A DNA stretch of 64,000 bases from Azolla caroliniana (Eukaryota; Plantae; Polypodiophyta): the NCBI GenBank assembly GCA_043228905.1, contig JBHGNT010000012.1, positions 16,802,001 through 16,866,000 of the forward strand, in the 5' to 3' direction. The position numbers were made by a program, and so were the translations under genes. Positions 9,790 to 51,514 of the stretch are shown in pieces. The notes under the pieces are model-generated. The model did no database searches. It was not told the origin of the DNA and saw nothing but the letters and a program-made list of their open reading frames with translations. Numbering within the stretch: position 1 is the stretch's first letter; the number at the start of each line of letters is the position of its first letter.

Positions 9790-10183
9790 TGTCACGGACA
9801 GGTAGATGAGGCTAAATACTAAGAGAGAGCGAGAGCATAAGCAAGAGAACAAGAAAGGGAGAGTGAGAGAATAGACAAGATAAAAAGAACTAATATTATG
9901 CTTCCGTAACTGGTGTTGTTCACCTTGATTGTAATCAAGGTGCACCCGAGTATTTATACAAGAATGTGGAGGTATGCATGTAAGCTAGGAAACTTCTAGA
10001 GAATGCATATCTCTAGAAGTTTCTTGAAAGTTCTAGTGATTAACCTATAATGTAATAAGTTGGATCTTATACAATATAATAATGCATAGATGGATGTAGC
10101 TCAACTAGTAAGGTTGCCCAATAAGACCAGGAGGTCATGGGTTCAACCCCCCACATGCATCTTGTCTATGATAGTAGTGAACA
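9790..10183 (-). mobile_element. 5' LTR (394 bp) of the Tf1/Tcn1-type element
   Basis: Minus strand TGTTCAC...GTGACA; TATAAATA at 9958-9951; hairpin at 9990-10022; non-tRNA PBS immediately downstream. Confidence 0.75.
10090..10160 (+). other. tRNA-like Pol III cassette in LTR U3, antisense to the LTR
   Basis: A-box TAGCTCAACTAG, B-box GGTTCAACCC, acceptor-like pairing ATGGATG/CATGCAT (6/7). No intact anticodon arm. Confidence 0.7.
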
Positions 10184-10450
10184 ACGGTATTCCGAGAAGG
10201 CCTTTGGGAGGAAGGCACATTCAAACAAAAAACGAGTGATGGGTCGAAGTGCCTTGATGAAAGCAACAGGCGAGCGAATGATATGGTGGATCGGGTGGAA
10301 GCAATGGATGTGTTCAAAATGGAGGGACAAAGTCGGTGTGGGTGAGGTGCAAAGAAGAAGCAAATCAAAGGTTGACAACCTTTGGCCCCACTACCTCACT
10401 CTTTTTCTTCTTGGCACATGCCGGAGGATATGCAGTTTGGTGGGGGTGGA

Positions 10451-11047
10451 TGTCGTGAAGTGGTGTGTCTAGGGGAGAAAAAGTGAAAAAGTGTGGTTCC
10501 ACGCCCATTTCATAAACATTAAGGGCTAGTAACATTTGAGTGTATACAAAGGGGTGAGCAAGGTTTGAACCTTACACCTCCAAAATAGGAACCAATTGAC
10601 TTACCACTAGAGCTAGTAATGAGTGTTGATTTTATATATTTCCTTATCATATTCAGAATTCCATACAAAACCGTGTGCCTAAAACCACGGTTTTGTGCAT
10701 GTCACAAGCAAAACCGTATGCACAAAAATCATGGTTCCAAGCCCATGGTTTTGCACATGAAGAGAGCTATAAAACCCTAGTAGGGCTTGTGTAAAGGGCT
10801 TGTCATCATCAATAATATAATATTCTTCTTCTCATCTATCTTCTTCTCAAAGTGTACAATCTTCGATCTTCTCAAGTGTAATAGTGTTTCCTCGACTCTT
10901 AAAATTGACATCGTCCTCTTTTCAATAACTTGGCGAACGTTCTCCTTGGCGCAAATGTCCTCCCCGGTCCAAGACCCTGATGGTCCCGCTCGAGCGACGC
11001 ACGCACGAACGTGAATTTTCGCGACACACATGTGTATCTTCACGACA
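10451..11047 (+). mobile_element. LTR (597 bp), probably a 3' LTR
   Basis: Perfect 10-bp terminal IR TGTCGTGAAG...CTTCACGACA. Upstream PPT-like GGTGGGGGTGGA. TATAAAA at 10768. Right flank ACGT, then integrase of another element. Confidence 0.8.
10555..10622 (-). other. tRNA-like cassette in LTR U3, antisense
   Basis: Minus strand TAGCTCTAGTGGTAAG...GGAGGTGTAAGGTTCAAACCTTG (A-box, B-box, T-stem). Confidence 0.7.
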
Positions 11048-11130
11048 ACGTAGCTCAATTGTTTTACAAATATATTTGTAAGTATCATGGATTACTACAA
11101 ATCATCGTATCTAACTAGGATCTTAGGTTC

Positions 11131-49700: not shown

Positions 49701-50560
49701 GAATTTGTTGGAATGTTGTACATAAAATTTGCTTTGAATAAGTCCCAATATTTAATGAAGAATGTTGGGGTTAGGCCATCCATACATGAACAACAATTTT
49801 TAGGCGAAGCTTGCAATGCTTCACTCAATTCATCATAAGTAAGAATGTCCTGAAGACGCACATTCATATCTTGTGTTATTCTTGGATTCAACTTATTCCA
49901 TACACAAGACCAACTTATTAAATCCTCATCGTAAACGGAAACAATTGATAATAGGTTGGAATAGTATCATGTAACTATTTCTCTCATAACTTGAGGTTAG
50001 ATGAGATGGTCCCATTCTCATGTTGTAGCTGTTTGAGTGAAACCGCATTATGATTGGTCTCATTGCATGAAAAAATTCAGCTATGCATTTATCACCCATT
50101 TGGGTCCAATTAGTTGCCCTATGATGATATTGAAATTCTGCACGCTTTTGTAATAGTACAACAAGTTCTTGTTTTGCTGACCTAAGTTTCTCAGCAATCC
50201 AAGTACAATGTGGATAACGTTCTTGTAACGTTGTAAAGAAACAAGAGAAGTACGTGACCGTTTCTCCTTTGCTGGCAGAATAGAAAACCTTTCCTTGGAT
50301 TTACACCTGAAAAATTCTAAAATACATCGTAAGCCATTAGCTCCCCGCATAGCCATTGATGAAAGAAACTTTCCGGATAAGTAAAATCTATCTAGGAGAG
50401 ATAAATTAGTACCATCTACACACCTATTTGATCTTGAAAACAAAAGTGAGGTGTTTGTATGCACTATCGAAGGAGCGTGCCAAGCATCTAACATTTGTAA
50501 GGAAAAAACCAATTGTTCCCTTAAGGCAAAAGTTGCATAGTTGCTACCTCATGTCCCCTT
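46728..50560 (-). mobile_element. Degenerate L1/Tx1-type LINE ORF2 (end of endonuclease, partial RT, zf-RVT, A-rich tail)
   Basis: SLLDRFYLS; DGLTPTFFIKYW; FVDDT; KLSFVGRIVVSNQVL..KVKWDLITLPRSKGRIGI; WLFPPP; (TTTTTA)n tail at ~46728-46750. Confidence 0.85.
48872..49544 (+). mobile_element. Copia solo LTR (673 bp) inserted in the LINE
   Basis: TG...CA ends with perfect 5-bp TSD TCTAC (48867-48871 and 49545-49549); TATAAATA; internal 57-bp tandem duplication. Confidence 0.93.
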
Positions 50561-50803
50561 AATATTACTTCCCCAAAATTGTCATAATTAACATATTTAT
50601 CAAAATGTAATGTTTGTTGTCTAACAACCAATCAAACATCCACTGCCACCCACATTTGTTTATCATATCCACAAAAAGGAAAGGTGTTGGTCGAGCAAGC
50701 CCAACCTGATCCGGATCGGTTGAGTAAGTTAGAACCGGATCGGTGTCCGGATCGGAGTGTAACCGATAGGCTGTTAGAGGCCTACGATCCTAGCCTAGTA
50801 CGT

Positions 50804-51514
50804 TGTCGTAGTGTAATTCGCACACTACGTGAAATATGTAAAAAAATATATCCGATTTAAGTACGCATAAATAAATAAAAGAAAATATTAAAAATATTGT
50901 TACATGCATAGGGCAAGATTCAAACCCTATACCTCCATGCAAACAAACCCAAACTTTACCATTGTACTAACTTATCATAAGTATTTAAATATAGATTTAA
51001 TAGGTATAAGACTTATATTTATGCCTATTTTTACAAAAAAGTAAATCATGCACTAGAGTGCGTGAAAACTTTATTTGGAAGAAAAAGGCAAGTCAATTAC
51101 TCATGCACATCTAGTGTGCATGAGCACTATATTTAGGAAATAAAAAAGCATGGTTGAAAAAGACAACTCATGCACATCTAGTGTGCATGAACACTTCAGG
51201 AAAAATCATGATGTTATGCTTAGCCTCTTCCATCACTATATAAGGAAGAGAGAAAATATGTATATGGTTGTTGATTTTTTATAAGGGTTGATTAATATAA
51301 AATATTCGTGGGAATTCACGATTTTGCCATCTATTTCTCTCTTACAATCTAAGTATCAATTAATGCACTATACTCGTGGGATTCACGAGTTTCACATCTT
51401 CATCTTGCAATCTATTCGTAACAAACCGTATCTCATATTCTTCTTTCTCCTAGTTCAAAACTCCAGCGGTTCCCACTTGACTCATGCAACGATCCGACAC
51501 CGAAAGGCACGACA
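50804..51514 (+). mobile_element. Solo LTR (711 bp) with 4-bp ACGT TSD, nested in the copia LTR
   Basis: ACGT|TGTCGT...ACGACA|ACGT; TATATAA at ~51237; palindromic repeats CTCATGCACA-TCTAG-TGTGCATGAG. Confidence 0.88.
50906..50969 (-). other. Degenerate tRNA-like cassette in LTR U3, antisense
   Basis: Minus strand TAGTACAATGGTAAAG...GGAGGTATAGGGTTTGAATCTTG; same layout as 10555-10622. Confidence 0.6.

Follow-up and report, generated by a model that had tools for sequence, protein, structure and literature searches.

Four dissimilar long terminal repeats (LTRs) of retrotransposons, located in 64,000 nt of Azolla caroliniana DNA (GCA_043228905.1, contig JBHGNT010000012.1, positions 16,802,001 to 16,866,000; this whole stretch is called the window), were found to share one layout. 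A tRNA-derived unit with an A box and a B box stands at the 5' edge of the U3 region of each LTR, on the strand opposite to the LTR. We put at roughly one in two the probability that this antisense unit is a domesticated, putative site for TFIIIC and RNA polymerase III (Pol III), which would shield the RNA polymerase II (Pol II) promoter of the LTR from silencing. Two distant Ty3/gypsy lineages, Tcn1 and probably the Phygy type, share the layout. A preliminary description of the window had recognised the common layout in the four distinct LTRs, but not that two distant lineages are involved.

Antisense tRNA-derived units in the four LTRs

Six units were located in the window:

10090..10160, + strand (antisense): LTR1 tRNA-derived unit; A box 10097-10108, B box 10140-10150
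10550..10622, - strand (antisense): LTR2 tRNA-derived unit; A box 10615-10604, B box 10571-10561
13022..13090, + strand (antisense): LTR3 main tRNA-derived unit; A box 13029-13039, B box 13072-13082
13159..13226, + strand (antisense): LTR3 duplicate unit, decayed; A-to-B box 13166-13219
50905..50976, - strand (antisense): LTR4 tRNA-derived unit; A box 50969-50959, B box 50926-50916
12690..12758, - strand (sense): LTR3 sixth unit, in R/U5; A box 12751-12740, B box 12706-12696

The five antisense units had been listed in the preliminary description, and their sites at the LTR 5' ends and their strands, opposite to the host LTR, were confirmed; the sense unit in R/U5 of LTR3 (12751-12696) had been overlooked. 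Loose contig ends at 12719 and 12723 (runs X2 and X3) retain an A-box-like end of this sense unit, with a different spacer. The duplicate unit of LTR3 is real, but it belongs to a tandem duplication of the LTR's opening ~138 nt. In LTR1 the B box lies 23 nt from the LTR 5' end and no T-run precedes that end, a T4 run follows immediately past the main unit of LTR3, and the LTR4 unit has a T5 run 21 nt downstream and an altered C56 in the B box of the window copy.

A loose A/B-box pattern matched the window 10 times and each of 8 shuffles 2-7 times, and such a pattern alone is weak, close to the chance level. ARAGORN called no tRNA in the window, and its relaxed setting (-ps70) was uninformative, calling 200 'genes'. 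With the Rfam tRNA model only 13029-13085 scored in the window (25.1 bits, E 0.7; gathering threshold 29), and the LTR1 and LTR2 units were still undetected when their 1.3-kb stretch was scanned alone. A profile with a variable-loop term, which was partly learned from the window's own units and used a consensus for the boxes, gave six matches in the window, all within the four LTRs. Five of them scored at least 22 bits, a level attained in 1 of 20 shuffles. Standard ARAGORN and Rfam runs barely detect the units. Six other LTR stretches of the window gave no match with the profile. The B box of LTR2 is nearly palindromic, and without the variable-loop term this unit scored 21.0 in sense and 19.6 in antisense. 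The units do not pass as functional tRNA genes: ARAGORN found none, and the best Rfam score, 27.8 bits in a related locus, stayed below the gathering threshold.

Anatomy of the LTRs

The LTR bodies are as dissimilar as first described, with no BLAST similarity among the four except one 28-nt match between LTR3 and LTR4. Their parts are as follows:

9790..10173, - strand: LTR1, 5' LTR of a Tcn1 chromovirus, delimited by alignment
9989..10040: LTR1 inverted-repeat block
9951..9958, - strand: LTR1 TATA box
9916..9926, - strand: LTR1 self-primer, just past the TATA box, complementary to 9777-9787
9777..9787, - strand: LTR1 self-priming primer-binding site
8580..9756, - strand: LTR1 element, broken gag, protease and start of reverse transcriptase; the window holds no 3' LTR
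10184..10450, + strand: LTR2 element, 3' internal end and purine-rich tract; contig depth high at 10320-10443
10451..11047, + strand: LTR2, a 3' LTR, probably Phygy-type; 10-bp terminal inverted repeat, then NCGN flank
10665..10774, + strand: LTR2 inverted-repeat block (10665-10753) and TATA box (10767)
12438..13284, - strand: LTR3, a solo LTR, probably of a Phygy-type family; first ~138 nt duplicated
12824..12982, - strand: LTR3 inverted-repeat block (12845-12982) and TATA box (12831)
50804..51514, + strand: LTR4, a solo LTR inserted in a copia LTR; contigs join both flanks
51100..51243, + strand: LTR4 inverted-repeat block (51100-51190) and TATA box (51236)

The 5' end of LTR1, earlier placed at 10183, was corrected to 10173 by the alignment. 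The order of unit, palindrome and TATA box was seen in all four LTRs, but the inverted-repeat block was rejected as a part of the module: such repeats also occur in L041 and L054, two unit-less relatives of LTR1, and in a copia LTR. Upstream of the units, at the distance usual in plants, inspection by eye showed neither a consistent TATA nor a consistent CAA element.

Lineages of the elements

LTR1 belongs to a self-priming Tcn1 chromovirus. The 11 nt after LTR1 pair with 11 nt just past its TATA box (9777-9787 and 9916-9926), and this pairing, with matching changes on both sides, was found in 15 of 15 related loci. The pair occurs in four sequence variants, each altered on both sides. These variants are direct covariation support for a mechanism that is only predicted in the available text of the cited papers; in that of PMC6317226, self-priming and a chromodomain mark Tcn1. 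The relatives of LTR1 are gag-pol elements of ~5 kb with a Ty3/gypsy pol, and six of the seven that were translated contain a chromodomain, always with aromatic-cage residues. The window copy is truncated.

The same source, in the part available, gives a 4-bp NCGN target and a tRNA-Trp primer for Phygy, a non-chromovirus clade described from Physcomitrella (PMC6317226). LTR2, LTR3 and LTR4 have related termini at both ends, and all stand at NCGN sites. The target duplication of LTR4 is exact (50800-50803 and 51515-51518); LTR3 has NCGN in its 3' flank and a mismatched, probably decayed 5' target copy. L059 and L069 have U5 ends akin to that of LTR2, and NCGN follows there too. At the 3' end of LTR3 (12438), loose ends of run X5 (15 contigs, agreement 0.54) show a site complementary to the 3' end of a tRNA that we take to be tRNA-Trp. 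Loose contig ends at LTR2 and LTR4 showed no primer site, and pattern scans for a Trp primer site, genome contigs included, returned none. Judged by these sequence features, LTR2-4 are probably of the Phygy type. The two lineages, taken by themselves, would point to a moss as the likely host.

Position, strand and presence in Tcn1 relatives

To collect relatives of the Tcn1 element, metagenomes were scanned with an alignment of gag. Of 287 stretches confirmed, the best 80 were kept and gave 79 loci; all of these (333,066 bases) were scanned for box pairs at a cut-off of at least 20 bits. There were 30 matches, compared with 2-3 per shuffle. Twenty-seven lie antisense inside the U3 of an LTR, 24 of them in Tcn1 U3 and three in a neighbouring LTR, with L059 contributing two and L079 one; no match lies in sense in U3, and the remaining three are elsewhere (L006, L064 and L076). 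Orientation, which the preliminary description had proposed to check, is fixed in 27 of the 30 matches.

The antisense strand was also scored in 30 Tcn1 U3 regions, with the LTR start set by eye and near-duplicates and U3-less loci left out; the rows L059b and L052, with a wrong start or too short, were not counted. Sixteen regions scored at a shuffle p of at most 1/200 and four at 3-8/200, nine were non-significant and one was too short. Several families lack the unit. In the 20 scoring regions the B box is 5-64 nt away from the LTR end, and 43-60 nt separate it from the A box; in L010, L016, L019, L022, L023 and L025 the LTR terminus comes 5-13 nt after the B box. The corresponding distance from B box to LTR end in the Phygy type is 65-170 nt.

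Most Tcn1 U3 types show little BLAST similarity to each other outside the TATA-R region. One U3 type was shared by two clades that are separate on the gag tree and on the integrase-chromodomain tree alike, and two further U3-type pairs cross clades, which suggests U3 exchange among co-resident Tcn1 families, with the caveat that short-read contigs may be chimeric. The shared types join L005, L014, L020, L024, L026 and L029; L013 and L040; and L011 and L022.

Some related structures were seen as well. L059 contains, at 2260-3273, a foldback of two Phygy-type U3 halves, each with an LTR2-like unit on an LTR3-like body. In L069, a related tRNA-like head (3480-3545) has the same direction as a downstream TATA box and lies ~900 nt from an LTR2-like U5 end; it is possibly a sense exception or a separate repeat. 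In L064 a tRNA-like head (1762-1815) lies at some remove from the Tcn1 element, within an AT-rich repeat behind which palindromic repeats come. A pattern scan of viral contigs gave three chance matches, and four further viral scans gave nothing.

tRNA origin and conservation of the boxes

The unit of L024, a relative of LTR1, aligns to the whole Rfam tRNA model, including the acceptor stem, at 27.8 bits (the one tRNA match in 14 loci). This complete alignment shows that the unit is tRNA-derived. Across 10 dissimilar families, the B-box columns are kept in 8, 10, 10, 10, 9, 7 and 10 of the 10, and the four variable-loop bases in 10, 9, 10 and 10, compared with 4-6 for most spacer columns. Canonical T-stem pairing in these families is no better kept than after permutation (15 of 30 pairs, against 14.0), a result easier to reconcile with a DNA promoter than with a functioning tRNA.

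Comparison with another species gave a similar picture. Loose ends of run X11 on LTR4 (33 contigs) differ at 14 of 19 spacer bases and then agree, in register, at all 11 bases of the A box; past the B box the sequence is T-rich. In the same run the B-box bin of LTR4 reached a contig depth, which is a rough proxy and not a copy number, of 7,891, against 0-1,952 elsewhere, termini and TATA box included. It was also among the top bins in runs X1, X5 and X12. For LTR1 and LTR3, bins over the unit equal the remaining LTR bins in depth, so that most copies seem to carry the unit and free copies are not in excess.

Insertion of a short interspersed element (SINE) was rejected, since there is no SINE body or tail, the orientation is fixed and free copies are not in excess; the heads in L064 and L069, which lie outside recognised LTRs, stand apart from this. 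The earlier proposal of a built-in tRNA-derived module was upheld by the fixed orientation, by boxes that outlast the spacer and by the lack of a SINE body or tail. Its argument from constant geometry has to be weakened: a module is supported, but a template switch onto a tRNA, without selection, would give the same position and orientation, and geometry alone therefore proves little.

Other features of the window

At 11129-12420 there are about five tandem 248-bp copies of a chromovirus integrase fragment, and LTR2 and LTR3 are inserted into that chromovirus. A Ty3/gypsy element at 34393-44355 has LTRs of ~160 bp without the tRNA-like unit and contains a nested copia element; the open reading frames scanned in it gave no chromodomain match, and its primer site presumably corresponds to tRNA-Ala. 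An open reading frame of 402 codons for amino acids at 20908-22116 (+ strand), with a weak match to a heavy-metal-associated domain (E 0.0045), is probably a host gene.

Discussion

We propose that the unit acts as DNA, by the following route. Right after the plus strand was primed at the purine tract, a switch of template to a tRNA would have left an antisense copy at the 5' edge of U3, and U3 exchange may have spread it between families. The TFIIIC/Pol III machinery is predicted to assemble on the A and B boxes, and the putative bound unit would keep heterochromatin and read-through transcription off the Pol II promoter, which lies 150-370 nt further in. Since the unit faces outward, its TFIIIB landing zone would fall inside the LTR, within U3, whatever the insertion site; the module would thus be self-contained, and this may be why it was retained. 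According to the available text of earlier papers, TFIIIC recognises boxes A and B (PMC5911963), tRNA genes are TFIIIC-dependent insulators (PMC4370569) and in yeast stop Pol II from reading through (PMC4228148), and RLG1, an element of mosses, is transcribed despite its location in heterochromatic islands (PMC7466625). Boxes and spacing that are kept while the cloverleaf decays fit a TFIIIC-bound DNA element. The sense unit of LTR3, and possibly that of L069, fits an orientation-tolerant DNA function. A bolder form of the proposal is, in our view, less likely than not: two unrelated Ty3/gypsy lineages may have independently domesticated tRNA genes as portable, outward-facing putative TFIIIC barriers at the LTR edge, refreshed by captures and traded by U3 exchange, which would keep elements in silent chromatin transcribable.

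Several observations weigh against a shielding site. The unit is dispensable, since some families lack it: nine of the 30 Tcn1 U3 regions have no significant unit. It is absent from L041 and from the most distant Tcn1 families (L054; L057, L067 and L080), weak in L032 and L045 and decayed in L043, its B box is deleted in L047, L004 has no A box, and reads contain deletions of the unit in single copies. The boxes outlast the spacer across families and species, but within LTR1's own family they show no clear advantage in conservation over the remaining U3. The depth peak at the B box of LTR4 may sum several families or other tRNA-like repeats. An extended T-loop hairpin on the tRNA strand beats shuffled flanks in four of 10 families (p of at most 0.02), which points to a role in RNA or single strands as well. 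Finally, because Pol II has to pass through the unit of the 3' LTR, a strong roadblock would cost the element.

Unlikely, yet the best placed of the other explanations, is a neutral passenger, in which a jump of reverse transcriptase onto a tRNA after plus-strand priming fixes the geometry, U3 swapping spreads the unit, and decay follows. The observed geometry is what such a jump would give, one family (family A) still has the full cloverleaf at 27.8 bits while other families have worn units, those nine U3 regions have lost the unit or hold a broken one, and the same U3 type is found in separate clades of the gag and integrase trees. A passenger would not readily account for boxes and variable-loop bases that persist while the spacer is replaced at constant length, or for a B box better kept across species than the LTR termini. 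Some of the box persistence could still reflect different source tRNAs that share universal bases.

We give a somewhat lower rank, and likewise a small chance, to an active Pol III gene whose short antisense hairpin RNA, or double-stranded RNA formed with the 3' U3 of the genomic RNA, tunes expression or silencing. All four main Phygy-type units examined have a run of at least four T within the LTR, 6-70 nt past the B box, the X11 loose ends are T-rich at this place, and in nine of 10 families the tRNA-sense strand forms the more stable extended hairpin. However, 11 of 12 Tcn1 units examined have no T4 run before the LTR end and would give transcripts without a fixed end. Besides, T runs are no surprise in AT-rich DNA, and strands rich in G and T fold better in any case.

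A role in reverse transcription, in which the genomic RNA uses its tRNA-complementary U3 stretch or the hairpin of that stretch, next to the purine tract on its downstream side, is improbable and comes third. The antisense orientation does make the genomic RNA complementary to a tRNA, and on the genomic strand the extended hairpin reaches a p of at most 0.04 in five of 10 families. The bipartite site of Ty3, according to the available text of PMC5371799, likewise gives a genomic RNA complementary to a tRNA, with a U3 part that holds the primer tRNA. There, however, the U3 part matches the element's own primer, whereas Tcn1 self-primes (15 of 15 loci) and needs no tRNA, and the Phygy-type unit mismatches its primer, whose binding site implies U at tRNA position 52 where the main units have the B-box G. 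Spacers that differ between species also mean that pairing along a host tRNA is not kept. Going by the title of a paper cited in PMC11241228, the U3-R region of HIV-1 reportedly includes a tRNA-like sequence, its U3 being complementary to its own primer tRNA.

It is very improbable that the unit serves as a landing pad for Pol III-targeting retrotransposons or promotes nesting into islands of transposable elements: LTR1-3 are nested within 3.5 kb, but the LTR1 element lies ~390 nt downstream of the B box of LTR2 and not upstream of the unit start, and no insertion at a fixed upstream distance was noticed when Tcn1 U3 regions were inspected by eye, nor among the loose ends displayed.

The putative TFIIIC/Pol III site proposed here resembles several known systems, which were compared on the parts of the publications available. 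Helenus/TRIMp3, a family of miniature retrotransposons with terminal repeats (TRIMs), has tRNA-derived sequence in its LTR with conserved boxes A and B that is not a working tRNA (PMC10886601). Helenus elements are non-coding, 311-1263 bp long and thought to be transcribed from their own Pol III promoter, and the unit has the sense orientation in their LTR entries of the supplement (PMC10886601). The unit described here is antisense, at the edge of U3 and beside a Pol II TATA box. In addition, LTR1 is followed by gag, protease and reverse transcriptase, its relatives are gag-pol elements, and two lineages are involved. The same paper states that 'not a few' LTRs in Repbase resemble tRNA, and describes only TRIMs in the text available (PMC10886601). 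The Cassandra TRIM shares a Pol III promoter in a plant LTR, but this is 5S-derived, drives its own transcript and belongs to a non-autonomous element (PMC10886601). The LTR1 lineage shares self-priming and the chromodomain with Tcn1, and the LTR3 type shares the 4-bp NCGN target and the tRNA-Trp primer site with Phygy; no tRNA-like U3 unit is mentioned for either in the available text (PMC6317226). In yeast, A and B boxes of tRNA genes and TFIIIC sites recruit TFIIIC, open chromatin, insulate and block Pol II (PMC4370569, PMC4228148, PMC5911963). Those barriers are fixed host loci, whereas the putative site described here is known from sequence and would travel inside a transposon.

A search of mainly open-access literature found no description of antisense tRNA units in the LTRs of coding moss elements, and the available parts of PMC2864245, PMC13570524 and the PlantRNA 2.0 preprint do not mention antisense tRNA units in LTRs. 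The preliminary description likewise knew of no account of such units in plant gypsy LTRs, but tRNA sequence in LTRs was already known from Helenus, in sense and in non-coding TRIMs (PMC10886601, as far as available). What appears to be new is the antisense unit in coding elements; Pol III promoters in LTRs as such were known.

The finding takes Pol III promoter sequence in LTRs beyond non-coding TRIMs to elements that code for proteins, where its geometry differs. It also addresses the question of how an element inserted in heterochromatin stays expressible, to which a site for Pol III factors at the LTR edge would be a concrete and mutable answer, open to testing in a moss whose genes are easily targeted. 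Were the site to be bound, TFIIIC sites would be spread across the genome in thousands of LTR copies, and this could help explain the patchwork of transposable-element islands and genes in mosses.

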